Source of the DNA: a virus
Taxonomy: Duplodnaviria; Heunggongvirae; Uroviricota; Caudoviricetes
Virus record (IMG/VR): IMGVR_UViG_2541047917_000006
Span: 1 to 42,169 of that record
Direction: 5' to 3' (one strand)
Length of the DNA: 42,169 bases
Shown: positions 8,007-35,604 of the stretch, in pieces
Layout: each line of letters opens with the position of its first letter
Numbering within the stretch: position 1 is the stretch's first letter
Translations under genes and position numbers: made by a program
Notes under the pieces: generated by a model
Seen by the model: only the letters and a program-made list of their open reading frames with translations
What the model was told of the DNA's origin: nothing
Databases searched by the model: none

Positions 8007-8042
8007 ATTAATTCCTCTCAAATAAGAAAATAAAGGCCACCA

Positions 8043-8243
8043 TCAGGCAGCCTTGTTATTCTGTTTACCAAGTTCTCTGGCAATCATTGCCGTCGTTCGT
8101 ATTGCCCATTTATCGACATATTTCCCATCTTCCATTACAGGAAACATTTCTTCAGGCTTAACCATGCATTCCGATTGCAGCTTGCATCCATTGCATCGCT
8201 TGAATTGTCCACACCATTGATTTTTATCAATAGTCGTAGTCAT
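8043..8243 (-). CDS. ral: Restriction alleviation protein Ral
   Basis: 66-aa ORF MTTTIDKNQWCGQFKRCNGCKLQSECMVKPEEMF..., matches lambda Ral as I recall it. Confidence 0.85.
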   Translation of the reverse strand: MTTTIDKNQWCGQFKRCNGCKLQSECMVKPEEMFPVMEDGKYVDKWAIRTTAMIARELGKQNNKAA

Positions 8244-8313
8244 ACGGATAGTCCTGGTATTGTTCCATCACATCCTGAGGATGCTCTTCGAACTCTTCAA
8301 ATTCTTCTTCCAT
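8227..8313 (-). CDS. Candidate 28-aa highly acidic peptide (MEEEFEEFEEHPQDVMEQYQDYPYDYDY)
   Basis: ATG five nt after GAGGTGA; overlaps the ral start in another frame; below the ORF-track size cutoff. Confidence 0.25.
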   Translation of the reverse strand: MEEEFEEFEEHPQDVMEQYQDYPYDYDY

Positions 8314-8423
8314 ATATCACCTCAAATAAGTGGTTTGCTGCCTAATTTCATTTTCTGGCGACCAACACAAGTCACACCCATTTCACTGCGTGGCTTGCGG
8401 TAGTAAATTAGGTTTGTTCAGAC

Positions 8424-8447
8424 AATAAAAAACCCACCGAAGTGGGC
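8424..8447 (-). terminator. Rho-independent terminator (tL1-like)
   Basis: Hairpin cccac-cgaa-gtggg followed on the minus strand by a T-run, immediately after the stop of the 114-aa gene. Confidence 0.55.
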
Positions 8448-8791
8448 TATGACCATTTTTTATTTGGATTTCGTTGGTGAGCGTGATTAACAACTCTGTG
8501 CATTACATCCTCATATTTTTCATCTTCAATTTTTTCGACATCGCGAGGAAATGGTGTTGCTAATGCTTTGTCAACTTTGTCCATTGGGTCTTCATTAATC
8601 TTATATTCAGGGCCATCATCTATAGCATTAAATCCAGGTGTTACACCGTTTTTTAATGCATATGCTATCCTTTTTTCCCATCTCGCTATTCTCCTCCTGT
8701 CTCGAGATGTAAGACCTCTATCAGATACTTTTCTGTTTTGTCCGCGGTCAGGATTAACATAAATAGTCTTTTTCACCATAAGCATACTCAA
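8447..8791 (-). CDS. Hypothetical Arg-rich protein, 114 aa, low-GC
   Basis: ORF directly downstream of N and coupled to it (TTG or internal ATG/GTG start); AT-rich codon usage unlike its neighbours. Confidence 0.5.
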   Translation of the reverse strand: MSMLMVKKTIYVNPDRGQNRKVSDRGLTSRDRRRIARWEKRIAYALKNGVTPGFNAIDDGPEYKINEDPMDKVDKALATPFPRDVEKIEDEKYEDVMHRVVNHAHQRNPNKKWS

Positions 8792-9093
8792 TAAGCACCG
8801 TACGGTAGTTTACTGTACAATTTTATTTTTTGGACTGCATGTATTTTGTTTCCTAATGGGTTTGAATCTTTGTAATAAATACTTCTATTTTTTCGAACGA
8901 CTTCTTCTTTCTTCTTGCAGCAAAGGCTTCCTAGCGATGCTGCTTTGTCTGCTCTGACGCAACCAGAGAGCTTTAGCGCAATTTTTCGCGCCAGTGCTTC
9001 ATTACTGCGTCGCTCGGCAATAAGTTCTGCTCTGCGAGCTTTGTAGCGGCTTTTTGCCGTACCTTTGGATTCTTTCCAGACAGTGGTTACCAT
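8788..9093 (-). CDS. N: Antiterminator N, phage 21 type
   Basis: Start reassigned to MVTTVWKESKGTAKSRYKARRAELIAERRSNEALARKIALKLSG after AGGAGA; arginine-rich N-terminus matches phage 21 N as I recall it. Confidence 0.85.
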   Translation of the reverse strand: MVTTVWKESKGTAKSRYKARRAELIAERRSNEALARKIALKLSGCVRADKAASLGSLCCKKKEEVVRKNRSIYYKDSNPLGNKIHAVQKIKLYSKLPYGAY

Positions 9094-19700: not shown

Positions 19701-20072
19701 ATGAACGACCAGCAAATCGAAAAAGAAATCGATGAGAAAGGCAAAACGGCACCGCGCGTTACGCCAGACCATATCGAAGGCATTATTGCTCAGGAGGCAT
19801 ATTTCACAGCAGAGGATGGTGCCTTTGGCAAAGCCATAAAAGCGAAACATACTGGCGGAGAGGTAAACTACCAGCCGCACGAATCACTTTCTCTGCTGAC
19901 GTTCTGCGTCCTGGTGCTGCGCAACGGCTTCACCGTCACCGGAGAGAGTGCCTGTGCAAGCCCTGAAAACTTTGATGCAGAAATTGGTCGGAAGATTGCC
20001 CGGCAGAATGCTGTAAACAAAATCTGGATGCTCGAAGGTTACTTGCTGAAGCAGAAGCTAAGCGAACAGTAG
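19701..20072 (+). CDS. Gp49-like phage protein (N4 gp49 / Sf6 gp66 family), 123 aa
   Basis: Position between lysis and terminase genes in a P22/Sf6-like phage; family assignment from memory, moderate. Confidence 0.5.
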   Translation: MNDQQIEKEIDEKGKTAPRVTPDHIEGIIAQEAYFTAEDGAFGKAIKAKHTGGEVNYQPHESLSLLTFCVLVLRNGFTVTGESACASPENFDAEIGRKIARQNAVNKIWMLEGYLLKQKLSEQ

Positions 20073-20175
20073 TTATTACAAAAGCCATTCCCTACAGAGT
20101 GGCTTTGATAATGGCTTATACCCTACACGGGATAACTTAACTGATATCCCTTTTAACGGATAAACGGAGCCAACA

Positions 20176-20418
20176 ATGGCAGAGATTATTCCCATGACTG
20201 AAGAACAGAAATTCCAGTTAGAGATTTACAAACTGGTCATGAACCAGAACGCAGCCGCAGAGGAAGCATTTCAGTTCATTGGCACTGACGAGCTGAAGCT
20301 TGAGCTATTCAAAATTCACTTCCAGTCAGGCGGCGCTAATTCGGATATCACGATCCGCACATTCGAAGCGGTGCGTAAATCGAAGGAAGCGTTAGACCTG
20401 TTCACTACCGGAGCATAA
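20176..20418 (+). CDS. Hypothetical protein, 80 aa
   Basis: Intact ORF immediately upstream of terS. Confidence 0.5.
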   Translation: MAEIIPMTEEQKFQLEIYKLVMNQNAAAEEAFQFIGTDELKLELFKIHFQSGGANSDITIRTFEAVRKSKEALDLFTTGA

Positions 20419-20420
20419 AC

Positions 20421-20861
20421 ATGGCGCGCCCAACGAAGTATCAAGAGGCGTATGCCGAACAGGCACGCAAACTGTGCTTGCTGGGCTATACAGACGCCGA
20501 ACTCGCGGACTTCTTTGAAGTGAGCGAGGCAACAATCAACAATTGGAAATTGGAATATCCGGAGTTTTTAGAGTCCATAAAAAAGGGTAAGGCCGTCGCT
20601 GATGCAGAAGTTAGTGATCGTCTTTATCAACGCGCTATGGGCTTCGTGGCTCCAGACATCGATATTCGTGTTATTGAAAACAGAATTGTCGAAACTCCGC
20701 TTGAGAAGTATTACCCGCCTGATACAACCGCCGCCATCTTCTGGCTTAAGAACCGACAGAAGGATAAATGGCGCGACAAGGTTGATCACGAGCTAACAGG
20801 CAAAGACGGCGGCGCAATTCAGATTGAAACATCACCGATGAGCACTCTATTCGGAAAATGA
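20421..20861 (+). CDS. Terminase small subunit (Sf6 gp1-like C-terminus, distinct N-terminal DNA-binding domain)
   Basis: C-terminus ELTGKDGGAIQIETSPMSTLFGK matches the Sf6-type TerS C-terminus as I recall it; N-terminal HTH differs; ATGA-coupled to terL. Confidence 0.8.
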   Translation: MARPTKYQEAYAEQARKLCLLGYTDAELADFFEVSEATINNWKLEYPEFLESIKKGKAVADAEVSDRLYQRAMGFVAPDIDIRVIENRIVETPLEKYYPPDTTAAIFWLKNRQKDKWRDKVDHELTGKDGGAIQIETSPMSTLFGK

Positions 20862-22270
20862 CCTCGATTAATCCTATCTTTGAACCGTTCATTGAGGCGC
20901 ATCGCTACAAAGTCGCCAAAGGCGGTCGAGGTAGCGGTAAATCATGGGCAATTGCGAGGCTGCTTGTTGAAGCGGCGCGCCGACAGCCTGTGCGTATTCT
21001 CTGCGCTCGTGAACTGCAAAACAGTATCAGCGATTCGGTAATCAGGTTGCTTGAAGACACCATCGAGCGTGAAGGATATTCGGCTGAGTTTGAAATTCAG
21101 CGTTCAATGATTCGTCATCTCGGAACGAATGCTGAATTCATGTTCTACGGAATAAAAAACAACCCGACGAAGATTAAATCGCTCGAAGGTATTGATATCT
21201 GCTGGGTGGAAGAAGCGGAGGCGGTAACGAAGGAATCATGGGATATCCTGATACCAACCATCCGTAAGCCGTTCTCTGAAATATGGGTGAGCTTTAACCC
21301 GAAGAACATCCTCGACGATACCTATCAGCGATTCGTCGTAAATCCTCCTGATGATATTTGTCTGCTGACGGTGAACTACACCGACAACCCGCACTTTCCT
21401 GAAGTTCTCCGTCTGGAGATGGAAGAGTGTAAACGCAGAAATCCGACACTGTATCGTCACATCTGGCTTGGTGAGCCAGTAAGCGCAAGTGATATGGCAA
21501 TCATCAAACGTGAATGGCTTGAAGCCGCAACCGATGCGCACAAGAAACTAGGATGGAAAGCGAAAGGCGCTGTTGTTTCTGCACATGACCCGTCAGATAC
21601 AGGACCAGATGCTAAAGGTTATGCATCGCGTCACGGTTCGGTAGTTAAGCGCATTGCCGAAGGTCTGCTGATGGACATCAACGAGGGGGCTGACTGGGCT
21701 ACTTCGCTGGCGATTGAAGACGGCGCCGACCATTACCTGTGGGATGGTGATGGTGTTGGTGCGGGTCTACGCAGACAGACAACGGAAGCATTCTCCGGTA
21801 AGAAAATCACCGCCACGATGTTCAAGGGCAGCGAATCGCCATTCGATGAAGATGCACCGTATCAGGCCGGAGCATGGGCTGATGAAGTAGTACAGGGCGA
21901 CAACGTTCGCACTATTGGCGATGTATTCCGCAATAAGCGAGCGCAGTTCTATTACACGCTGGCTGACAGGCTTTATCGAACATACCGGGCGGTAGAGCAT
22001 GGTGAATACGCCGACCCTGATGAAATGCTTAGCTTTGACAAAGAGGCTATTGGAGAGAATATCCTCAACAAGCTATTCGCAGAGCTAACGCAGATCCAAC
22101 GCAAATTCAACGGCAACGGAAAGCTTGAGCTGATGACCAAAGTCGAAATGAGGCAGAAGCTCGGTATTCCATCTCCTAACCTGGCTGATGCGCTGATGAT
22201 GTGTATGCATTGCCCGGCATTGGTCCGCGAAGAAACAGAAATATACGTTCCCTCATCCTCCGGTTGGTAA
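20858..22270 (+). CDS. Terminase large subunit (Sf6 gp2-like)
   Basis: 470-aa ORF MTSINPIFEPFIEAHRYKVAKGGRGSGKSWAIARLL (Walker A); matches Sf6 TerL from memory. Confidence 0.95.
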   Translation: MTSINPIFEPFIEAHRYKVAKGGRGSGKSWAIARLLVEAARRQPVRILCARELQNSISDSVIRLLEDTIEREGYSAEFEIQRSMIRHLGTNAEFMFYGIKNNPTKIKSLEGIDICWVEEAEAVTKESWDILIPTIRKPFSEIWVSFNPKNILDDTYQRFVVNPPDDICLLTVNYTDNPHFPEVLRLEMEECKRRNPTLYRHIWLGEPVSASDMAIIKREWLEAATDAHKKLGWKAKGAVVSAHDPSDTGPDAKGYASRHGSVVKRIAEGLLMDINEGADWATSLAIEDGADHYLWDGDGVGAGLRRQTTEAFSGKKITATMFKGSESPFDEDAPYQAGAWADEVVQGDNVRTIGDVFRNKRAQFYYTLADRLYRTYRAVEHGEYADPDEMLSFDKEAIGENILNKLFAELTQIQRKFNGNGKLELMTKVEMRQKLGIPSPNLADALMMCMHCPALVREETEIYVPSSSGW

Positions 22271-22272
22271 AC

Positions 22273-24399
22273 ATGGCAGAGACATTAGAGAAAAAACATG
22301 AGCGGATCATGCTCAGGTTTGACCGCGCCTATTCTCCACAGCAGGAAGTGCGCGAAAAGTGCATTGAAGCTACGAGGTTTGCTCGTGTCCCCGGAGGTCA
22401 ATGGGAAGGAGCAACGGCGGCTGGAACTAAGCTTGATGAGCAGTTCGAGAAGTATCCTAAGTTTGAAATCAATAAGGTAGCAACTGAACTTAACCGCATC
22501 ATTGCAGAATACCGCAATAACAGAATCACCGTTAAGTTTCGTCCTGGTGACAGAGAGGCAAGCGAAGAGTTAGCCAATAAATTAAATGGTCTGTTCCGTG
22601 CTGACTACGAAGAAACTGATGGCGGTGAGGCTTGCGATAATGCATTTGACGACGCTGCTACTGGTGGTTTCGGTTGCTTCCGTTTGACGTCTATGCTGGT
22701 CAATGAATACGACCCCATGGACGATCGTCAGCGCATTGCTATTGAACCAATATACGACCCGTCGCGCTCTGTGTGGTTTGACCCTGACGCTAAGAAGTAC
22801 GACAAATCAGACGCGTTGTGGGCGTTCTGCATGTATTCGTTGTCACCTGAAAAATATGAGGCTGAATACGGAAAGAAACCTCCTGCTTCTCTGGATGTAA
22901 CGTCTATGACCAGTTGGGAATATGACTGGTTTGATGAAGATGTTATTTACATAGCGAAGTATTACGAAGTTCGTAAAGAGTCTGTTGACGTCATCAGTTA
23001 TCGACATCCAATCACTGGAGAGATTGCAACATACGATAGTGATCAGGTTGAAGATATTGAAGATGAACTGGCAATAGCTGGATTTCAGGAAGTGGCAAGG
23101 CGCTCAGTGAAGCGCCGTCGTGTGTATGTATCCGTAGTGGATGGTGATGGTTTCCTTGAGAAACCTCGACGTATTCCTGGTGAGCATATCCCCCTCATTC
23201 CGGTTTATGGAAAACGCTGGTTCATTGATGACATTGAGCGTGTCGAAGGGCACATTGCAAAAGCAATGGATCCACAGCGTTTGTACAACGTTCAGGTTTC
23301 AATGCTGGCTGATACTGCAACGCAAGAACCCGGTCAGATCCCTATAGTTGGCATGGAGCAAATTCGTGGACTTGAGAAGCACTGGGAGGCTCGCAACAAG
23401 AAACGACCAGCGTTCTTGCCGTTGCGCGAAGTGAGAGATAAATATGGCAACATCATCGCTGGAGCTACCCCAGCAGGATATACACAGCCTGCGGTTATGA
23501 ATCAGGCATTGGCTGTATTACTACAGCAAACCAGTGCTGATATTCAGGAGGTTACAGGCGGCAGTCAGGCCATGCAGCAGATGCCAAGTAATATTGCTCA
23601 GGAAACGGTTAACAACTTGATGAACAGAGCAGATATGGCTTCGTTTATCTATCTGGACAATATGGCGAAAAGTCTTAAACGCGCTGGTGAAGTATGGCTG
23701 TCAATGGCGCGTGAAGTGTACGGTTCAGAACGTGAAGTGCGCATCGTTAACGAAGATGGAAGTGATGATATCGCTGTCCTGAGCGCACAGGTTGTTGACA
23801 GGCAAACAGGGGCTGTTGTTGCGTTAAATGACCTTTCTGTCGGTCGATACGATGTGAAAGTTGATGTTGGACCAAGCTACACAGCACGACGTGATGCAAC
23901 GGTTTCTGTACTGACAAATGTCCTTAGCTCTATGCTTCCAACGGACCCAATGCGCCCGGCAATTCAGGGTATTATTCTGGACAATATCGATGGCGAAGGC
24001 CTTGATGACTTCAAAGAGTACAACCGAAACCAACTGCTGATATCTGGTATTGCAAAACCACGCAATGAGAAAGAGCAGCAGATTGTTCAACAGGCGCAAA
24101 TGGCAGCACAAAGCCAGCCAAATCCTGAAATGGTTCTCGCTCAGGCGCAAATGGTAGCAGCGCAGGCAGAAGCGCAAAAAGCAACTAACGAAACTGCTCA
24201 AACTCAAATCAAAGCATTTACTGCCCAGCAGGATGCGATGGAGAGTCAGGCAAACACTGTCTATAAATTGGCTCAAGCCAGAAACATCGATGACAAAGCA
24301 GTGATGGAGGCAATACGCCTTCTGAAAGATGTCGCCGAGTCACAACAACAGCAATTCCAGTCACCACCACAGTCACCGGCAGACTTAATGCCGAGTTAA
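22273..24399 (+). CDS. Portal protein (Sf6 gp3-like, 708 aa)
   Basis: Start reassigned to MAETLEKKHERIMLRF just after the terL stop; size and position fit the Sf6/P22 portal. Confidence 0.9.
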   Translation: MAETLEKKHERIMLRFDRAYSPQQEVREKCIEATRFARVPGGQWEGATAAGTKLDEQFEKYPKFEINKVATELNRIIAEYRNNRITVKFRPGDREASEELANKLNGLFRADYEETDGGEACDNAFDDAATGGFGCFRLTSMLVNEYDPMDDRQRIAIEPIYDPSRSVWFDPDAKKYDKSDALWAFCMYSLSPEKYEAEYGKKPPASLDVTSMTSWEYDWFDEDVIYIAKYYEVRKESVDVISYRHPITGEIATYDSDQVEDIEDELAIAGFQEVARRSVKRRRVYVSVVDGDGFLEKPRRIPGEHIPLIPVYGKRWFIDDIERVEGHIAKAMDPQRLYNVQVSMLADTATQEPGQIPIVGMEQIRGLEKHWEARNKKRPAFLPLREVRDKYGNIIAGATPAGYTQPAVMNQALAVLLQQTSADIQEVTGGSQAMQQMPSNIAQETVNNLMNRADMASFIYLDNMAKSLKRAGEVWLSMAREVYGSEREVRIVNEDGSDDIAVLSAQVVDRQTGAVVALNDLSVGRYDVKVDVGPSYTARRDATVSVLTNVLSSMLPTDPMRPAIQGIILDNIDGEGLDDFKEYNRNQLLISGIAKPRNEKEQQIVQQAQMAAQSQPNPEMVLAQAQMVAAQAEAQKATNETAQTQIKAFTAQQDAMESQANTVYKLAQARNIDDKAVMEAIRLLKDVAESQQQQFQSPPQSPADLMPS

Positions 24400-24412
24400 C
24401 CAGGAGTAATCA

Positions 24413-25297
24413 ATGGAAAACGAACTGATCATCGACGGTCAGGTTATTGGCCTGTCTGAAACACAGGAAAATGCAGAAGAAACCATCATCCAAACAGAGT
24501 CACAGCCTGAGAATGAAAGCCAGGATGACAACGGTAAAGAGGTGGCAACTGAGCCTGAAAAAACCGAAGAGACACCAGAAGATTACGCCTTGCGTATTGG
24601 TGATGAAGAAATTCAGCTTAACGCTGACGATGATGATCACATTGACGGGCAACCTGCACCGCAATGGGTGAAAGATCTTCGCAAAGGCTTCAAAGAAACA
24701 CAGAAAGAAAACCGTGAGTTGCGCCGCCAGCTTGAGGAAGCATTAGCCAAGCCTGCGGAACATCAGCAACCACAACCAGACGCTATTCCACCAAAACCGA
24801 CTCTTGAGTCGTGTGATTATGACGAACAGGCGTTTGAACAGGCATTGACTGATTGGCATGAGAAAAAAGGCCGTGTCGAACAGCAGCAGCAACAAAAACT
24901 ACGTCAGCAACAGGAATACCAACAGCGTTTCCAGCAAAGGGTAGAAGCGCATAAACAACGGGCAGCCAAACTTCCTGTGAAAGATTATCAGGAAATGGAG
25001 GCCATTGTTCTTAGTGAGCTACCACCAATTCAGCAGGAAATCATCATTCACTGTGCAGACGAAGGCTCTGAACTACTCGCCTATGGCTTAGGTAAGAGCC
25101 AGCAATTACGCCAGCGTGTAGCCGCTGAGACAGATCCAATTCGCGCAGCATTCCTCTTGGGGCAGATTAGCAAACAGGTAAGCCTTGCTCCAAAACCAAA
25201 GAAAGCCATCAAGCCAGAGCCGGAAGTACGTGGTGGCGGTGCTGATGCGAAACAAGACGAATTCAACAAATTATGCCCCGGCGCAAAAATCGAATAA
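24413..25297 (+). CDS. Scaffolding protein
   Basis: 294-aa acidic, Gln-rich, helical protein between portal and coat. Confidence 0.85.
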   Translation: MENELIIDGQVIGLSETQENAEETIIQTESQPENESQDDNGKEVATEPEKTEETPEDYALRIGDEEIQLNADDDDHIDGQPAPQWVKDLRKGFKETQKENRELRRQLEEALAKPAEHQQPQPDAIPPKPTLESCDYDEQAFEQALTDWHEKKGRVEQQQQQKLRQQQEYQQRFQQRVEAHKQRAAKLPVKDYQEMEAIVLSELPPIQQEIIIHCADEGSELLAYGLGKSQQLRQRVAAETDPIRAAFLLGQISKQVSLAPKPKKAIKPEPEVRGGGADAKQDEFNKLCPGAKIE

Positions 25298-25308
25298 GGA
25301 AAAGATAA

Positions 25309-26580
25309 ATGCCTAACAATCTCGACAGTAACGTCAGTCAAATCGTTCTGAAAAAATTCCTTCCGGGTTTTATGTCAGATTTAGTTCTGGCGAAAACCGT
25401 AGACCGTCAGTTGCTGGCAGGTGAAATCAACTCCAGCACTGGCGATAGCGTTAGCTTTAAACGTCCGCATCAATTCTCATCCCTCCGTACTCCCACTGGT
25501 GATATTTCAGGGAAAAATAAAAACAACCTGATCTCAGGTAAAGCTACGGGGCGTGTAGGTAACTACATCACTGTTGCTGTTGAATATCAGCAACTGGAGG
25601 AAGCTATCAAGCTTAACCAACTGGAGAAAATTCTCGCGCCGGTTCGCCAGCGAATCGTTACCGACCTTGAAACAGAGCTTGCTCACTTCATGATGAATAA
25701 CGGTGCGTTGTCACTTGGTAGCCCCAATACTCCAATCACCAAATGGTCTGATGTTGCGCAGACGGCATCTTTCCTGAAAGACCTCGGCGTTAATGAAGGT
25801 GAAAACTATGCTGTAATGGATCCATGGTCTGCACAGCGACTTGCTGATGCGCAGACTGGTTTGCACGCTTCAGATCAATTGGTTCGTACTGCATGGGAGA
25901 ATGCACAGATCCCAACCAATTTTGGCGGCATTCGCGCACTGATGTCTAATGGGCTTGCCTCTCGTACGCAGGGGGCATTTGGCGGAACACTGACAGTCAA
26001 AACACAGCCAACTGTTACCTATAACGCAGTTAAAGACTCATACCAGTTCACTGTAACATTGACCGGAGCGACAGCCAGCGTTACAGGTTTTCTGAAAGCT
26101 GGTGATCAGGTTAAATTCACCAATACCTACTGGCTGCAACAGCAGACCAAACAGGCGTTGTATAACGGAGCCACACCAATTAGCTTCACTGCAACGGTTA
26201 CTGCTGATGCTAATTCAGACAGCAGTGGCAATGTGACGGTTACGCTTTCTGGTGTTCCGATTTATGACACTACAAACCCGCAGTACAACTCTGTAAGTCG
26301 TCAGGTAGCGGCAAACGATGCCGTATCTGTAGTAGGCACTGCTAGCCAGACAATGAAGCCAAACCTGTTCTATAACAAGTTCTTCTGTGGACTTGGCTCT
26401 ATCCCACTGCCGAAACTGCACAGTATTGATTCTGCTGTTGCAACATATGAAGGTTTCTCCATCCGCGTACATAAATACGCAGATGGCGATGCCAACGTGC
26501 AAAAAATGCGCTTTGACTTACTGCCTGCATATGTGTGCTTTAACCCTCACATGGGCGGTCAGTTCTTCGGTAATCCGTAA
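25309..26580 (+). CDS. Major capsid (coat) protein, Sf6/P22 type
   Basis: 423-aa ORF after scaffold, followed by a strong terminator. Confidence 0.9.
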   Translation: MPNNLDSNVSQIVLKKFLPGFMSDLVLAKTVDRQLLAGEINSSTGDSVSFKRPHQFSSLRTPTGDISGKNKNNLISGKATGRVGNYITVAVEYQQLEEAIKLNQLEKILAPVRQRIVTDLETELAHFMMNNGALSLGSPNTPITKWSDVAQTASFLKDLGVNEGENYAVMDPWSAQRLADAQTGLHASDQLVRTAWENAQIPTNFGGIRALMSNGLASRTQGAFGGTLTVKTQPTVTYNAVKDSYQFTVTLTGATASVTGFLKAGDQVKFTNTYWLQQQTKQALYNGATPISFTATVTADANSDSSGNVTVTLSGVPIYDTTNPQYNSVSRQVAANDAVSVVGTASQTMKPNLFYNKFFCGLGSIPLPKLHSIDSAVATYEGFSIRVHKYADGDANVQKMRFDLLPAYVCFNPHMGGQFFGNP

Positions 26581-26584
26581 TAAC

Positions 26585-26606
26585 AAGGGGCTTACGCCCC
26601 TTTTAT
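26585..26606 (+). terminator. Rho-independent terminator after coat
   Basis: AAGGGGC-TTAC-GCCCCTT hairpin plus TTT. Confidence 0.65.
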
Positions 26607-26622
26607 GTTTTAAGGAAACAAT

Positions 26623-26808
26623 ATGGATCGCATGAGTGTATTCCTTGCCGCAGATAACGAACCCGGGCATGTACAGGCCGTTATCGCAGAAAAAGACTTC
26701 CAGTTTTTCGAAAAGTTGGGCTTTGTTGCCTCAGTTGATGAATTGAAACCGACCAGTAAGCGAGGTCGTAAGGCGGCAGACAATGGCAACAGTACTGACA
26801 AAGGGTGA
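26623..26808 (+). CDS. Hypothetical small protein, 61 aa
   Basis: ORF between coat and gp4-like gene. Confidence 0.45.
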   Translation: MDRMSVFLAADNEPGHVQAVIAEKDFQFFEKLGFVASVDELKPTSKRGRKAADNGNSTDKG

Positions 26809-27265
26809 GATCGTCCTTTTTGCGCTTCGTAAGTTTGCTATTGCTTCTAACGCATCGCTGACTGATGTTGAGCCGCAATCAATTGAAGATGGTGTAAATG
26901 ATCTGGAAGATATGATGTCCGAGTGGATGATTAACCCCGGCGACATTGGTTACGCTTTCGCAACTGGAGATGAGCAGCCATTACCAGATGATGAGTCAGG
27001 TCTTCCAAGAAAATACAAACACGCAGTAGGCTATCAGTTATTGCTGAGAATGCTATCTGATTACAGCCTTGAACCAACTCCGCAAGTTCTCAGTAACGCC
27101 CAACGCTCATATGATGCCTTGATGACCGACACTCTGGTTGTTCCTTCAATACGACGACGTGGAGATTTTCCTGTAGGACAGGGTAATAAATATGACGTGT
27201 TCACATCTGACCGATATTATCCAGGCGATCTCCCTCTGATTGATGGCGATATCCCAAACGCATAG
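26783..27265 (+). CDS. Tail accessory / head completion protein (P22 gp4-like)
   Basis: 160 aa; [34 protein letters not shown] parallels P22 gp4 ([34 protein letters not shown]). Confidence 0.85.
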   Translation: [160 protein letters not shown]

Positions 27266-27273
27266 GTGAATAA

Positions 27274-28692
27274 ATGCCTATTCAGCAACTTCCGCTTATG
27301 AAAGGTGTCGGCAAAGACTTCCGAAACGCCGACTATATCGACTATCTGCCAGTGAATATGCTGGCTACACCCAAAGAAATCCTGAACAGCAGCGGATATC
27401 TTCGCTCATTCCCGGGCATTGCCAAACGTTCTGATGTGAACGGTGTATCGCGGGGCGTCGAGTACAACATGGCGCAGAATGCTGTTTATCGTGTGTGTGG
27501 TGGCAAGCTCTACAAAGGAGAAAGTGAAGTCGGTGATGTTGCCGGAAGTGGTCGCGTATCAATGGCGCATGGTCGGACATCACAGGCGGTAGGCGTTAAT
27601 GGTCAACTGGTCGAGTATCGTTATGATGGCACGGTTAAAACCGTCTCAAACTGGCCTACAGACAGCGGATTCACGCAGTATGAATTAGGATCAGTCCGTG
27701 ACATTACGCGCTTACGTGGGCGTTATGCGTGGTCAAAAGACGGAACTGATTCATGGTTTATCACTGACCTTGAAGACGAATCGCATCCTGACCGTTACAG
27801 CGCACAATATCGCGCAGAATCGCAGCCGGATGGCATCATCGGTATCGGAACATGGCGAGACTTCATCGTCTGCTTTGGTTCATCGACGATTGAATATTTT
27901 TCCCTGACTGGGGCAACCACCGTTGGTGCTGCTTTGTATGTCGCCCAGCCATCGTTAATGGTGCAGAAAGGCATTGCCGGAACCTACTGCAAAACGCAGT
28001 TTGCTGATTCGTATGCGTTCATCAGCAATCCGGCAACGGGTGCGCCGTCTGTATACATCATCGGCTCCGGTCAGGTATCACCAATCGCCAGCGCGAGTAT
28101 TGAGAAAATACTACGCTCCTACACTGCTGATGAACTGGCTGATGGTGTGATGGAATCGTTGCGGTTTGATGCGCATGAGCTGCTGATTATTCACCTGCCG
28201 CGCCACGTCCTCGTATACGACGCATCTTCAAGCTCCAATGGTCCGCAATGGTGTGTACTGAAAACAGGCCTGTATGACGATGTGTACCGCGCTATCGACT
28301 TCATTTACGAAGGCAATCAGATAACGTGCGGCGATAAGCTGGAGTCCGTGACCGGGAAATTGCAATTCGATATATCTTCACAATACGAAAAACAACAAGA
28401 GCATATTTTATATTCCCCTCTAATAAAGGCTGATAACGTTTTAATAAATGACCTTGAATTAGAAACATCTGGCGGCGTGTGTGATAGAATAGATAGAATA
28501 TTTATATCAGCCACTACAGACGGAATTAATTACGGTCATGAGCAAATGGTTGTATTACAAAAACCATTTGTATATGACAATCGCGTTTTATGGCGAAAAG
28601 TTGGTCGAGTTAGACGCCTCATTGGATTTAAATTCAGAGTTATTGCAAAAGGTCCTGTTACATTATCAGGCCTTTCTATTCGTGTAACATAA
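27274..28692 (+). CDS. Tail accessory protein (P22 gp10-like), 472 aa
   Basis: Size and position match P22 gp10; the last ~100 codons are AT-rich. Confidence 0.8.
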   Translation: MPIQQLPLMKGVGKDFRNADYIDYLPVNMLATPKEILNSSGYLRSFPGIAKRSDVNGVSRGVEYNMAQNAVYRVCGGKLYKGESEVGDVAGSGRVSMAHGRTSQAVGVNGQLVEYRYDGTVKTVSNWPTDSGFTQYELGSVRDITRLRGRYAWSKDGTDSWFITDLEDESHPDRYSAQYRAESQPDGIIGIGTWRDFIVCFGSSTIEYFSLTGATTVGAALYVAQPSLMVQKGIAGTYCKTQFADSYAFISNPATGAPSVYIIGSGQVSPIASASIEKILRSYTADELADGVMESLRFDAHELLIIHLPRHVLVYDASSSSNGPQWCVLKTGLYDDVYRAIDFIYEGNQITCGDKLESVTGKLQFDISSQYEKQQEHILYSPLIKADNVLINDLELETSGGVCDRIDRIFISATTDGINYGHEQMVVLQKPFVYDNRVLWRKVGRVRRLIGFKFRVIAKGPVTLSGLSIRVT

Positions 28693-28713
28693 ATCGAAAC
28701 TAAAGGAGTAGAT

Positions 28714-29259
28714 ATGTTGAGTGAAAACGCAAAAGATATTCCTGGATATGAAGGTTTATATGCCGTAACAGAGGATGGGCGAGTATATTCTCACTCACGT
28801 GTTGTTAAGGCTGCGCATGGCAGCACGCAACTCAGAAAGGGGCGCTGGTTAAAACAACACGAGAATAATAAAGGTTATCTATATTTGCCACTTAGTGTTG
28901 ATGGAGTTAAAGTAAAATGGCTTGTGCATAGACTTGTCGCTCTTGCTTTCGTCCCCAATCCAGAAGGCAAGCCGTTCATAAATCACATAGATAACAACCG
29001 AAAAAATAATAATGCTTCTAATTTAGAGTGGTGTACTCAAAAGGAGAATATGAAGCATTGCTCATCTCAAGGCAGGGTGAAGTTTCCGGCTTTAAAAGGA
29101 GAAAATAATCCAATTTCAAAGCTCTCATATGAGCAAGTAATAGAAATAAAGAAATCAAAGGGAGTTAATCAAAGAGAGCTTGCTAAAAAATACTGTGTCA
29201 GTCAGACGGTGATTCACAATATCCAGTCTGGTAAATCGTGGAGGCATGTTAATGGCTGA
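28714..29259 (+). CDS. HNH homing endonuclease (NUMOD4 + HNH + HTH)
   Basis: [18 protein letters not shown] (NUMOD4-like), [24 protein letters not shown] (HNH), C-terminal [21 protein letters not shown]-rich insert between gp10 and gp26. Confidence 0.85.
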
Positions 29260-29953
29260 TTCGAATCTCAATACACCTGTTGTGGTTCAGGCTACGCGGC
29301 TTGATGCTTCAATTTTGCCACGCAATATATTCAGCCAGTCTTACCTGCTGTATGTCATAAATCAGGGAGCTGATGTCGGTGCAATTGCTGGGAAGGCAAA
29401 TCAGGCTGGTCAGGGCGCTTACGATGCTCAGGTGAAAAACGATGAACAGGACGTCGAACTGGCTGACCACGATGCAAGAATCACCGCAAACACAAAAGCG
29501 ATAAATCTCCTTGAGGTCAGGTTAACAACCGCCGAAGGGAAGATAGTCGTACTGCGTAGCGATGTTGATTACTTGCTGGATGAGGTTATCGATATTCAGG
29601 CGCATCTGGTCACTGTTGACAAAAGACTGGATGGCGTAGAAAGCGATGTATCTGACATTAAGAGTGATTACGTATCGAAAACCGTAACAGAATCGCAGTC
29701 TCTTGCGTCACCGCTGGATGTAAAAACATCATATTCAGTTGATGGAATTCAGGTTGTTGGAGCAAGAAATACCGGATGGACTGCAGCCACGGGTACGCCA
29801 CTTCTTGGCTCATTCAACGCTAACCAGTCATACGCTGTCGGCAATACGTACACACAATCCGAAGTCGCAGCACTCGCTACAGGTTTGCAGCAGGCGCGGC
29901 AGCGTATTCTGGCGCTTGAAACGGCACTTAGATTACATGGGCTGATTGACTGA
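29252..29953 (+). CDS. Tail needle protein (P22 gp26-like), 233 aa
   Basis: [36 protein letters not shown]... and C-terminal [23 protein letters not shown] parallel P22 gp26. Confidence 0.9.
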
Positions 29954-30408
29954 TGATTACATTCAAACCAACGCGAAACATCGACCTGATAGAAGCTGTC
30001 GGAAATCACCCTGACATTATTGCCGGGAGCAACAACGGTGATGGATACGACTACAAGCCTGAATGCCGTTACTTTGAGGTTAACGTGCACGGTCAGTTTG
30101 GCGGCATTGTTTACTATCAGGAGATTCAGCCGCTTACATTCGATTGCCACGCCATGTACCTGCCAGAGGTTCGCGGATTCAGCAAGGAAATCGGGCTGGC
30201 GTTCTGGCGATACATTCTGACTAACACCACCGTTCAGTGCGTCACATCGTTCGCTGCACGCAAATTCCGCCACGGGCAGATGTACTGCGCAATGATTGGC
30301 CTTAAGCGTGTCGGAACCATCAAGAAATACTTCAAGGGCGTGGATGACGTGACGTTTTACAGCGCCACACGTGAAGAACTAATCGACTTCCTGAATCACG
30401 GGAGATAG
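29953..30408 (+). CDS. Tail accessory / ejection-associated protein (P22 gp14-like)
   Basis: 151-aa ORF in the gp14 position. Confidence 0.75.
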   Translation: MITFKPTRNIDLIEAVGNHPDIIAGSNNGDGYDYKPECRYFEVNVHGQFGGIVYYQEIQPLTFDCHAMYLPEVRGFSKEIGLAFWRYILTNTTVQCVTSFAARKFRHGQMYCAMIGLKRVGTIKKYFKGVDDVTFYSATREELIDFLNHGR

Positions 30409-32454: not shown

Positions 32455-34562
32455 GTTTACCCGAAGGATTTGTTCTCGATAATCAGCCTGATAACTCACA
32501 GCTTCCTGATGGTTTTGTGCTTGATTCCCAACCAGAGCAGCAGCAATCACCTTTGGTTTCACCAGAGGAAAACTCCAGACAGGAAAATGTTGTTAATAAT
32601 GCTAACGGCTTCGACCGTTTTATGTATGGCGTTCTCAGTGGATTGATGGATGTTGGTAAAGGTGTTGGTCTATTTCAGGATATGACACCAGAAGAGCAAG
32701 CCGCAATTCAGTCTCTACAGCAGAAGTTAGCGGCAAAACCATCAACCGCACAAGATGTTGGTGAGTTCGTTGGACAAGCAGCACCATTTGTTAGTGGTGG
32801 TGGGATTATTTCTCAGGTTCCGAAAGGGGCGGCAAGGCTGGCTGCCGCCGCAGGGCTTGGTGCTGGAGAAGGGGCTATTGTAGCCAATGGAACAAATAGC
32901 GATGTTGCTTCTGGAGCTGCTATTGGCGCTGTGGCTGGCCCTGTAGCAGAGATTGTTGGTCCAGCGCTTGGGAAGATTGCAGGAAAAATTAAAAATAGTG
33001 CCGGAGATATTTATCGCTCATCCGTAGGGATGGGTAGTAAATCATCTAAAGCAACGTTAAAGAAAGCTGCTGGCGCAATGGACAATAAATTTATCGGCGG
33101 GCAACGAGCTATTCAAGATTTCGCCGATGAAGTTAATCCTGATTTTAACGCGATAAATGCTATTCGTGAGCTAGAACTGGAAAATTATGCCACTCCAGGC
33201 ATGATCTCTAATAATCCTGCTGTCAGGGCTCTTGATAATGCAGTGGCAAGTCTCCCTGGAACAGAGATTAGTGAGGCGCATAAGCGTTTTATTACTGAAT
33301 TAGGAAGAAAAGCTGATGAAATGATAACTTCATTTGGGGGAAGCCTTGATAAGCAACTGGTTTCTGACAGGCTTGCAGATAATTTTGATAAAACCATTTC
33401 ATCATTACAAAATCAGTCAGATAACATCTACAACAAAATTGCCGAAAAGGTTCCTGTAAGAGACCGGATTGAGGCAACTAATACATTGAATTTTTTAGAG
33501 GATTTTGCTGATGATATAGGTGGAATTGATGAATTATCTCCAATAATGAAGCGGACATTGAACCGACTTGATCCAAACACCTTGCCAACGTATGGGCGTT
33601 TAGATCTCGCTAGAAAGCAGGTTGGACAAGCTATTGGCAAAGGCTCTGGTCCATTCAAGGATGAAGAAACAGGTGTTCTTAAAAAGTTATATGCAGCCAT
33701 AACAGATGACCAACAGGCTGTCGCAGAAAAATATGGCGCAGGGGAATTATGGACGCTTGGTAAGGAGTTGGTAAAAAAACGAAAATCCATTGAAGATGAT
33801 GCTGTAACCGTCTTGGGTAGAAAACTTCAGCAATCAGCAATTCCAAAAGTTGAAAGTGCTGTTGTTAATATGGCAAAAGGAAACGGTGGCGACTTTAGGC
33901 AATTAATGAAGTCGATTCCAAAGGATATGCGGCAGGAAGTTGCGCTCACCTCAATGAATAAAGCATTTACCAGCTATGCCAAATCACCTGGTCAGCAATT
34001 AGGAGTTGATGGATTTGTAAAATGGTATAACGGAATGTCACGCAATGGGGCCAATATGAAGGCTCTCCGTGATGCTATTGGCACAGATGCATCAAAGCGC
34101 CTTGATACGATTTATCAAGCAGCTAAGGCTATGAATAGACTCAATACTGGTAAGCAGTATGCTAGTAGTCTTGTGGATCAGCAAGTTAATAACTTTCTGA
34201 AAGAAAAGGGTAGTCTCGCAAAAATTTATGGAATAGCCTCAAAAGCTGCTGCGGCGGAAGGTATTACAAGCTTATCTGGTCTTCCTGGTGTAGGTGCAAC
34301 AGGGGTGATAACGTCAGCATTGATGTCAGGGAAAACAAGCAGGATAAAGGCTGCTGATGCTCTACTGTCTTCTCCTGAGTTTAAATCAATGCTATTTCGC
34401 CTGCAAAACGCACCAGTAGACAGAGCAGAAGTGAGACGCGTAATAGAAAGGAAACTGATGCAATCTGGGGCATTTAAGAGATGGGAGAAAACCTTATCAA
34501 CAGATGAAGCAAAAACCATTGCCCGCACGGGGATTATTACATGGCTCGCTAGTGACAGTTAG
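32439..34562 (+). CDS. Ejection protein (P22 gp16-like), 707 aa
   Basis: Position and size; last gene of the ejection-protein block. Confidence 0.75.
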
Positions 34563-34786
34563 TCAACTTTGGTTATTTTGCCTTCTTTTTCTTGATGAAC
34601 TTTGCATCCATCGTCTTTTGATAGCCAAACTAAAAACTTTAAAACCTTAAACACAAGTACGGCTACTGCAATGAAAGCACCAATTGCAATTATTGCAAGC
34701 GAAATTATTTGCATTGGTGCTTTTAATGCAGGGAAAATAGTGTAAATGATCGCGAAAACAGTAATTATGAGGAACCATCGCTTCAC
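34559..34786 (-). CDS. Small two-helix membrane protein, 75 aa, low-GC moron
   Basis: GTG start five nt after AAGGAGG; strongly hydrophobic with AT-rich codons; convergent with and overlapping the gp16 stop. Confidence 0.6.
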   Translation of the reverse strand: MKRWFLIITVFAIIYTIFPALKAPMQIISLAIIAIGAFIAVAVLVFKVLKFLVWLSKDDGCKVHQEKEGKITKVD

Positions 34787-35160
34787 ACCAACCTCCTTAG
34801 TTTTGAGCAGGATACCAGATGATACTGTATTGGTGGAGTGGTGTGTGAAAACGTGTCAACGACAAACCATCCACAACTTGGACGAATGATTTAGCAAAAA
34901 GTGCTATTTTTGGTGTTTAGTGTCATAGAAAAGTGAATAGCTCACTTTTCAACATTGCATGAAACTTGCAGGAAATGTGACATTACCTTATAGGTAACTT
35001 CGGCGAAAATGCAGTAAATGTGAAACGTAATGGTTTAAACATGTCGCTAAAGTGGTTGTAAGTTAGCCTCCGAAGGATTGCTGATAGCTTTGTTATAGTA
35101 TTAAATGACATTTGACATAGTTGGATACTTAGCTGTGGCTATCAAGATGGAGGTGTGTTC

Positions 35161-35604
35161 ATGCTTACTTGTTTTGATGTCGCCGACTACTTCCTGTCGC
35201 GGTGTGACGAGGATAGCGGTGACACAATCTCTAATTTAAAATTACAAAAGCTTGTTTACTATGCTCAGGGTTTTTCATTGGCGTTGCTTGGCGAGCCTCT
35301 TTTTCAGAATAAGATGGAAGCTTGGATGCATGGCCCTGTTGTCCCTGAGCTTTATCGCCGTTATAAACAATATGGTAATGGCGCTATCCCTTCTCCAGAG
35401 TCTTTTGATGCTGAAAAATTCAGCGAAGAACAGTTAGAGCTATTAGAAGAAGTCTGGGATGTTTTTGGGCAATTTTCTGCCTGGAAACTGAGGAACATGA
35501 CACACGAAGAGTCACCATGGAGATCAAACTATATTGAGGGTGTTGGTGGTTCTGAAATTAGCTCTAAGGAGATGGCAGAGTACTTTGCAACTCGGATTAA
35601 CTAA
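35161..35604 (+). CDS. Panacea-domain (DUF4065) protein, PanA/SocA-like antitoxin candidate
   Basis: ATG after GGAGGTG; CFDVADYFL...ISNLKLQKLVYYAQGFSLALLGEPLF...EAWMHGPVVPELYRRYK fits the DUF4065 consensus as I recall it. Confidence 0.7.
   Translation: MLTCFDVADYFLSRCDEDSGDTISNLKLQKLVYYAQGFSLALLGEPLFQNKMEAWMHGPVVPELYRRYKQYGNGAIPSPESFDAEKFSEEQLELLEEVWDVFGQFSAWKLRNMTHEESPWRSNYIEGVGGSEISSKEMAEYFATRIN

Follow-up and report, generated by a model that had tools for sequence, protein, structure and literature searches.

A probable free-standing homing endonuclease cassette that carries a foreign 3′ end of the tail hub gene gp10 in P22-like phages

Introduction

Why does an extra gene lie between tail genes 10 and 26 of a P22-like phage, and why does the end of gene 10 beside it look foreign? 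This question was raised by a viral sequence of 42,169 nucleotides (nt) (IMG/VR virus record IMGVR_UViG_2541047917_000006, positions 1 to 42,169), the whole of which is called here the window. Only 3 nt separate genes 10 and 26 in P22, and in HK620 the gene 10 stop and the gene 26 start overlap. Since neither phage has a gene at this place, the open reading frame (ORF) of 181 amino acids (aa) found there in the window is an extra gene at a normally closed junction. An initial annotation had described its product as a NUMOD4/HNH/helix-turn-helix (HTH) protein between gp10-like and gp26-like genes, at a junction where P22 has no gene. It had also noted a drop in base composition from about the last 100 codons of gp10, and had proposed that the element replaced the 3′ end of that gene as a co-converted flank. 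Comparison of the locus with its relatives led us to a reading to which we give a probability of about three in four: positions 28374-29251 would form an ~880-bp free-standing homing endonuclease cassette, which spreads through gene conversion and never without the 3′ end of gp10. The best explanation of the data is an element of two linked parts, an I-HmuI-like HNH gene without a promoter of its own and a foreign stretch, low in guanine and cytosine (GC), that makes up the last 106 codons of the essential gene gp10.

Results

Identity and base composition of gp10 break at one point

Within the P22 group (Lederbergvirus), the window is of the Sf6/HK620-like type. In BLAST comparisons the 8.3 kb upstream of the element (positions 20000-28360) was 97-98% identical to vB_EcoP-611R6, 683R2, HK620, N7, and Sf6, and relatives at this level of identity with empty gp10/gp26 junctions were found. 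The gp10 gene (27274-28692, on the plus strand, as are all features of the locus given below) encodes the 472-aa tail hub and matches Pfam Phage_stabilise over its full length (E = 3.7e-282). Its body (27274..28373), which would serve as the left homology arm, is native to the Sf6/HK620-like backbone, with 94-95% nt and 99% aa identity to HK620 and a GC content of 0.51; codons 1-363 differ from HK620 by 3 residue changes and at 56 of 1089 nt, nearly all of the changes being synonymous. Past ~28374 only 58% of the DNA and 65% of the protein sequence still agree with HK620, against 94% and 99% before it; GC drops from 0.51 to 0.35, where HNH-free alleles have 0.49-0.50, and codons 364-472 carry 38 residue changes and 137 differences in 327 nt. 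This sharp break, 106 sense codons before the stop, lies about where the initial annotation had seen composition drop, and the C-terminus of gp10 is not uniformly similar to that of endonuclease-free relatives. Despite the swap of this heterologous 3′ end (28374..28692, the last 106 codons and the stop), the frame and the length of 472 codons are kept.

Results of the GC sliding-window analysis showed values of 0.33-0.43 over ~28300-29250 against 0.46-0.55 on either side. For positions 28374-29251 the GC content was 0.374, compared with a mean of 0.460 (standard deviation 0.035) for segments of equal length (z = -2.45), 2.6% of which were as low. The dip is real, yet not unique in the window, of which it is the second-lowest GC island; as it coincides with the sharp identity break, we consider it more than a fluctuation of composition. 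Among the other low-GC islands, 41016-41893 (0.345) is lower than that of the cassette, and the remaining ones lie at 40131-41008 (0.376), 8016-8893 (0.383), and 34442-35319 (0.390).

The foreign gp10 tail occurs together with the HNH gene

A P22-like gp10-gp26 locus was present in 915 of 5426 complete E. coli genomes. The AT-rich gp10 tail of the window was found in exactly 52 E. coli genomes, and these are, by name, the 16 that carry the window's allele of the endonuclease gene (HNH1) plus the 36 that carry a second one, HNH2 (a 177-aa NUMOD4-HNH protein, WP_000947776), at the same place, including strain O111:H- 11128 (L010:2215-2748). We observed two classes of gp10 tails, which follow the presence of the HNH gene rather than the phylogeny of gp10. 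Tails of the HNH-bearing class end in ...FKFRVIAKGPVTLSGLSIRxT and have a GC content of 0.35-0.43, while those of empty loci end in ...FKLRVITKSPVTLSGCQIRIE and have a GC content of mostly 0.49-0.52, two Citrobacter loci having 0.43 and 0.46. In distant HNH-bearing loci the gp10 body is 76-80% identical to that of the window at the aa level and the tail 83-84%; in equally distant empty loci the corresponding values are 74-78% and 63-67%, and in empty close relatives 99% and 64-65%. Between 9 HNH+ and 13 HNH- alleles, the 330-nt tail has 26 near-fixed differences and the 1089-nt body none. Three distant HNH+ lineages show a drop in GC over the same last ~300-330 nt of gp10, and tail GC lies ~0.15 below body GC in every enterobacterial HNH+ lineage.

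Replacement of the 3′ end of gp10 by the element, as proposed, is supported by the 52 genomes being the sum of the two allele sets, by the 0 versus 26 class differences, and by the identical 907-bp block described below. A co-converted flank was the right concept, which we refine in one respect: in many phage lineages the foreign tail appears to be a lasting component without which the cassette does not occur, and not a one-off conversion tract.

Tight linkage of this kind could also result from ordinary mosaic recombination, in which the tail and the HNH module would have arrived from a distant low-GC P22-like phage, the HNH protein being a passive or inactive passenger and the linkage a matter of adjacency and lack of homology. 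Virion genes of P22-like phages are mosaic in general, and the 5′ end of gp26 is patchily polymorphic irrespective of the HNH gene. A tail of 58% identity is too diverged for internal crossovers, so linkage would arise without any nuclease activity, and the tail GC of 0.43 next to a body GC of 0.44 in a Providencia locus is consistent with a low-GC source lineage. We regard mosaic recombination as an unlikely account of the cassette: it explains the linkage, and it explains less well the selection, the site fidelity, the double-crossover patch, and the repeated colonisation reported in the following sections.

Two candidates for a direct record of transfer or loss were rejected. The Providencia loci (L011/L012), with an HNH-type tail of native-like GC, were considered as direct donor, but their tails are only 63-64% identical in nt to that of the window. 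Citrobacter locus L030, which lacks an HNH gene and has a GC content of 0.43 in the tail and 0.57 in the body, was considered as a footprint of HNH loss, but its tail protein is of the HNH-free class, like that of L032. A hybrid tail without an endonuclease was seen in Citrobacter sp. NCU1 (L031:5090-5419): it has the HNH-type motifs PLIKADNAL, FKFRVI, and LSGLSIRA, an HNH-free-type final residue, and a normal GC of 0.50, and may be an endonuclease-loss footprint or a recombinant. As for the target site of the enzyme, differences fixed between the classes peak at 28464-28500, but conservation among HNH-free alleles is flat across the tail and no site can be named.

An identical block in different backbones and variable tract ends

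Over 907 bp (28366-29272) no differences were found between the window and the prophage of strain MMC-J-0105, whereas the flanks diverge by 6.9% on the side of the gp10 body and by 31% over the 249 nt of gp26 that follow. The chance of an identical run of 907 bp at 6.9% divergence is ~7e-29. MMC-J-0105 has a different needle type (with an Sf6-like knob) and a different gp4 allele; the same cassette is thus found beside two needle types and two gp4 types, and the HNH-type gp10 tail with two different gp4 alleles. Mismatches begin 9 nt to the left and 21 nt to the right of the heterologous segment, and the block appears to be a minimal gene-conversion patch rather than the product of a single crossover. 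Break repair predicts that both crossovers fall this close to the heterology, while two random crossovers, as mosaic recombination would need, are unlikely to do so.

In the left junction zone of the cassette (28366..28404), divergence from HNH-free alleles begins at one of two points depending on the locus. Column-by-column alignment placed the left end of the foreign tract at 28374 (gene position ~1101) in the window, MMC-J, O111, and 30602, and at ~28404 (gene position ~1131) in HZ41, SBF22, SCU-124, SMN013, and the loci of a third allele, HNH3. The tail beside HNH2 is 96-97% identical to that of the window, while the HNH2 gene shares only its first ~105 nt with HNH1; as the tail is shared and the gene mostly is not, one endonuclease allele apparently replaced another inside the same cassette.

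The protein resembles I-HmuI and its gene is conserved

The endonuclease gene (28714..29259, 181 aa, ATG start) was identified from Pfam, PHROG, and I-HmuI matches in sequence and fold. Pfam searches gave NUMOD4 (E = 2.4e-11; 44.1 bits against a cut-off of 23.4) and HNH_3 (E = 1.7e-10, above the cut-off), whereas HTH_3 was weak (E = 0.0048, under the cut-off); PHROG 59 ‘HNH endonuclease’ matched at 3e-58. The three modules named in the initial annotation were thus recovered, at aa 7-60 (NUMOD4), 70-113 (HNH motif), and ~139-174 (HTH), the last of them supported mainly by structure. I-HmuI of phage SPO1 (PDB 1U3E) was the only significant solved relative by sequence (E = 2.3e-12, 27% identity). 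An AlphaFold model built from 60 homologs had a mean predicted local distance difference test (pLDDT) score of 92, with beta strands over residues 6-70 and three helices over 139-171, and in Foldseek it aligned with 1U3E over 182 columns, that is, full length (E = 4.7e-9, probability 1.0, template modelling (TM) score 0.52-0.54). By alignment, the catalytic H91 and residues N99, N103, and N112 of the HNH motif correspond to H75, N83, N87, and N96 of I-HmuI; N90, H91, N103, and N112 are invariant across the 60 homologs, down to 40% identity. By architecture and predicted fold, the enzyme would belong to the I-HmuI-like NUMOD4-HNH-HTH group.

The ratio of nonsynonymous to synonymous substitution rates (dN/dS) of the gene was 0.04-0.07 where synonymous divergence was measurable, and the nonsynonymous proportion (pN) was far below the synonymous one (pS) in all pairs, so that the gene appears to be under strong purifying selection. 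An intact HNH ORF with invariant catalytic residues and such a dN/dS is unlike a decaying passenger, as mosaic recombination would have it. Strong purifying selection would equally suit a nuclease domesticated for the benefit of the phage, whether as a weapon against gp10 of competing P22-like phages (marker exclusion) or as an accessory of DNA packaging or processing. Homing endonucleases exclude the markers of competitors in T-even phages (PMC2988022), and domains related to those of homing endonuclease genes (HEGs) act in conflicts between phages and their satellites (PMC10448857). Exclusion of competitors, however, follows from homing and is no true alternative to it.

A role in packaging fits the gene poorly. 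The ORFs at 20858-24399 are terminase and portal genes according to the annotations of BLAST matches, and the endonuclease gene is ~6.4 kb downstream, not beside the terminase genes. P22-like phages package by the headful mechanism (PMC9728967). An HNH protein of the packaging type (HK97 gp74 type, small and encoded beside the terminase and portal of cos phages) was rejected on the position between tail genes and on the NUMOD4 and HTH modules; the I-HmuI architecture is unlike that of the small packaging-associated HNH proteins. Domestication is in our opinion improbable, even more so than mosaic recombination, and further points on both sides of it are given in the next two sections.

The cassette is fitted between gp10 and gp26 without a promoter

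Following the gp10 stop is a 21-nt spacer (28693..28713), which contains the Shine-Dalgarno sequence AAGGAG (28703-28708) of the endonuclease gene, 5 nt ahead of its ATG. The 21-nt gap is common to every locus with a related HNH gene. No promoter-like or terminator-like sites were found flanking the endonuclease ORF, and two weak promoter-like matches inside it (28885 and 28982) are at chance level, with 3 found in the region against 5.5 expected. As no promoter or terminator beyond chance was detected, we treat the gene as a promoter-less cassette of the late operon. Placement in this operon with good translation signals would also favour domestication.

The right junction (29240..29259) is equally compact. 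The 3′ end of the endonuclease gene (WRHVNG, stop) contains GGAGG (29240-29244) 7 nt ahead of the gp26 ATG, and overlaps gp26 by 8 nt, its TGA (29257-29259) falling on codons 2-3 of gp26; three divergent HNH alleles have kept both the C-terminal WRHVNG and the overlap. On this side the boundary is exact: gp26 opens with ATGGCTGATTCGAATCTCAAT in occupied and empty loci alike, the first 21 nt being identical, and alignment of gp26 5′ ends showed no HNH-linked tract. The gp26 gene (29252..29953, tail needle, PHROG phrog_1219 at 3e-113) would be the right homology arm. Homology and the RefSeq annotation of related loci place its start at ATG 29252 (MADSNLN...), and on homology this start replaces the ATG at 29246 (MLMADS...) of the program-made ORF list. 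Further out, the gene order is gp5 coat, a small ORF, gp4 (26783-27265), gp10, the 181-aa ORF, gp26, gp14 (29953-30408), and gp7.

Other kinds of insertion were considered and rejected. For an intron or intein, Rfam matches reached only E 0.64 or worse and included no intron family, and gp10 and gp26 are complete separate ORFs. For a transposon or insertion sequence, no terminal repeats or target duplication bound the insert, and its sole ORF is the HNH protein.

Occupied and empty sites

An HNH gene was present at gp10/gp26 in ~56 of the ~915 E. coli genomes with the locus, HNH3 accounting for 4 of them, and absent from ~94%. Because ~94% of the related E. coli prophages lack the gene, as do all P22-like phages that are well studied, the endonuclease is not needed for growth, which speaks against domestication. 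The junction is empty in P22, HK620, Sf6, and 611R6, and in all 15 gp10 loci of GTDB species representatives (Escherichia, Shigella, Pseudescherichia, Citrobacter, Buttiauxella, Atlantibacter, and others). Outside E. coli, the nearest homologs of the HNH protein share 61-85% identity with it. Each is encoded 21 nt past the gp10 stop, in a divergent P22-like locus where the gp10 body is only 55-80% identical to that of the window; one of these loci is a Providencia rettgeri prophage. Occupation of the same junction in gp10 backgrounds from 55% to 99% identity is not easily reconciled with mosaic recombination.

In the phage collection, the same element was found only in Escherichia phage HZ41 (L002, OM022251.1). 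The HZ41 record is flagged UNVERIFIED and has no annotation, which makes the cassette effectively invisible in annotated phage genomes. Elsewhere the gene is variously labelled ‘NUMOD4 domain-containing protein’ or ‘HNH endonuclease’, or is left unannotated. Two occupied loci are seemingly interrupted: M160133 (NZ_CP022164.1, ~1922717-1924968) has an insertion sequence, IS1A, in the matched region, and ETEC6334 (NZ_CP122604.1, ~1546655-1548850) has ~1.4 kb between the gp10 tail and HNH2, against ~0.1 kb elsewhere. Both loci may be decay stages of the cassette.

Further endonuclease genes at both ends of gp10

A second NUMOD4-HNH gene, of 194 aa, lies between gp4 and gp10 in E. coli 30602_1#64 (L009:1384-2149) and in Salmonella phage UPF_BP1 (L004:1501-2300), an arrangement carried by ~18 E. 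coli genomes. Here a truncated remnant of gp10, its native first 93 nt (96% identity to the window), persists upstream, and the functional gp10 starts with ~120 recoded nt (GC 0.39, 65% identity to native) that overlap the 3′ end of the HNH gene by 53 nt, so that the arrangement mirrors the 3′ cassette. Positions 28722-28853 of the window are ~92% identical to L009:1533-1664 over 132 nt: the first ~46 residues of the two proteins are near-identical and the remainder is different, which suggests module shuffling between the endonuclease genes at the two ends of gp10. A different endonuclease family occupies the gp10/gp26 junction of 683R2 (L003:2196-2690), where a gene labelled ‘endolysin’ encodes HNH_3 (4e-16) and AP2 (8e-5) domains. 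Recoding of gp10 in 683R2 is limited to the last ~35 nt, and the native end AGGATTGAGTAA is duplicated just ahead of the gp26 ATG.

At least four different HNH genes have thus colonised the two ends of gp10, each with its own recoded gp10 terminus, which mosaic recombination explains poorly. A bolder reading, which we offer tentatively and regard as less probable than not, takes the tail as an ‘immunity exon’, a functional second part of the element that protects its carrier and blocks separation of tail and gene. gp10 would then be a battleground of at least four endonuclease lineages at both ends (three NUMOD4 alleles and one HNH-AP2 at the 3′ end, one NUMOD4 at the 5′ end), which swap modules and replace each other.

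A possible route of transfer and the evidence weighed

For a cassette that homes in the way proposed in the Introduction, we envisage the following course. The position of the gene in the late operon suggests that the endonuclease would be made from the late transcript in lytic growth. If an HNH-free relative were present, as a co-infecting phage or a resident prophage, it would be nicked or cut, either in the 3′ ~320 nt of its gp10 or at the gp10/gp26 junction. The break would be resected until sequence matching the donor is met, on the left upstream of ~28374 and on the right at the start of gp26, and repair would copy everything between these two homology points, as the shape of the shared blocks suggests. 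With a tail only 58% identical to the target allele, the donor allele is probably immune to cutting. The diverged donor tail would block recombination between the cut site and the gene, and tail and gene would for this reason always be inherited together. To the phage the insertion would be cheap: gp10 loses neither length nor frame, the endonuclease gene brings a ribosome-binding site of its own, and gp26 receives a new one along with an overlapping stop/start.

Several points count against this account. Nuclease-driven transfer, that is, homing in the strict sense, is something we infer from comparing sequences. A passive process would also give the tight linkage of tail and HNH gene, because a tail 42% diverged cannot recombine with HNH-free alleles, which forces the crossover to its left. 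Many of the 52 genomes are clonal (swine enterotoxigenic E. coli (ETEC), O111:H8), so that independent cases are fewer than the raw counts. The GC dip, taken alone, reaches only z = -2.45. Finally, the metal-binding Asp74 of I-HmuI is Asn90 here, although this replacement is likely tolerated, as Asn90 is invariant in the family.

Discussion

To our knowledge, nearly all work on phage homing endonucleases has dealt with virulent phages such as T4, SPO1, and ICP1. The locus described here points to homing-endonuclease biology in a temperate P22-like phage, in a tight structural operon and beside a highly conserved virion gene. Public genomes provide for it an unusually clean natural data set, with empty sites, several alleles per site, variable tract ends, and a 907-bp patch in unrelated backbones. 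There is a lesson for annotation as well: the cassette gene is labelled inconsistently, and the related HNH-AP2 gene goes under the name of an endolysin.

The locus also offers a concrete, testable case of a selfish nuclease that may impose the exchange of a segment of an essential structural protein. The tail hub of Sf6, the homolog of P22 gp10, is a six-bladed beta-propeller with an apical domain, built from the N- and C-terminal extensions, that reaches in between two adaptor (gp4/gp7) subunits; hubs of P22-like phages of Salmonella, Escherichia, and Shigella are ~90% identical (PMC9728967). Judged by this structure, the exchange of 106-109 residues should cover the region of the last blade together with the C-terminal portion of the adaptor-binding domain. 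The swapped segment differs at 35% of its residues and must still fit the tail machine. Were the ‘immunity exon’ idea correct, endonucleases would drive the evolution of an interface of virion assembly, since the N- and C-terminal extensions of the hub form one adaptor-binding domain. For P22, Sf6, and HK620, genetic tools are at hand and tail structures are known at high resolution, which makes both homing and structural tolerance directly testable.

Literature searches returned no account of the cassette in P22-like phages; a mention in Casjens and Grose (2016) or Casjens and Thuman-Commike (2011) is possible. The element is of a known kind, of which it is a well-documented natural example, and as such it would not surprise a specialist. 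Its closest relative in protein architecture is I-HmuI, which is encoded in an intron of the SPO1 DNA polymerase gene and nicks near its insertion site. A NUMOD4 beta-sheet DNA-binding module, an HNH beta-beta-alpha-metal nuclease, and a C-terminal helix-turn-helix are present in both proteins. I-HmuI is intron-encoded, whereas the window's gene is free-standing between two genes, with no intron RNA found in Rfam.

In its genomic behaviour, as far as sequence comparison can tell, the element matches the free-standing homing endonuclease genes of the T4 mob/seg type. Many free-standing endonuclease genes of T4 are promoter-less cassettes, their products cut hundreds to thousands of bp from their own gene, and the Mob HNH enzymes make a single-strand nick (PMC2988022). 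Resection has to extend as far as sequences homologous to those that flank the donor endonuclease gene on either side, and whatever lies between cut site and gene is co-converted (PMC2988022). The anatomy of the cassette fits this model. MobA and MobE are likewise encoded by free-standing, promoter-less HNH genes between conserved genes; they target the neighbouring essential gene, nick one strand, and have co-inherited flanks (PMC2988022, PMC2790892). The window's gene shares their position and the co-inherited flank, and would share the kind of target and of cutting. Their hosts are virulent T-even phages and their targets are genes of nucleotide metabolism and replication, in contrast to the structural tail-hub gene of a temperate P22-like phage.

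The closest mechanistic analogue is the SegG/SegF type, where the cleavage site is in the neighbouring gene, hundreds of bp from the endonuclease gene, so that the whole interval must be co-converted, and where the donor has a diverged allele (PMC2988022, citing Liu et al., 2003 and Belle et al., 2002). These enzymes are of the GIY-YIG family and cut both strands, and their tract varies between near-identical phages, unlike that of the window, which is a stable gene segment, 42% diverged in nt and common to many phage lineages. ICP1 and other ‘HEG islands’ (Barth, Dunham, and Seed, 2023) present a comparison on a larger scale. In that account (PMC10448857), HEGs cluster beside or inside essential genes, mark the boundaries of exchange, and shuffle domains. 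A likeness to them is seen here in the N-terminal module shared by HNH genes at both ends of gp10; the exchanged unit is <1 kb here against >10 kb in the islands, and the endonuclease families and phages differ.

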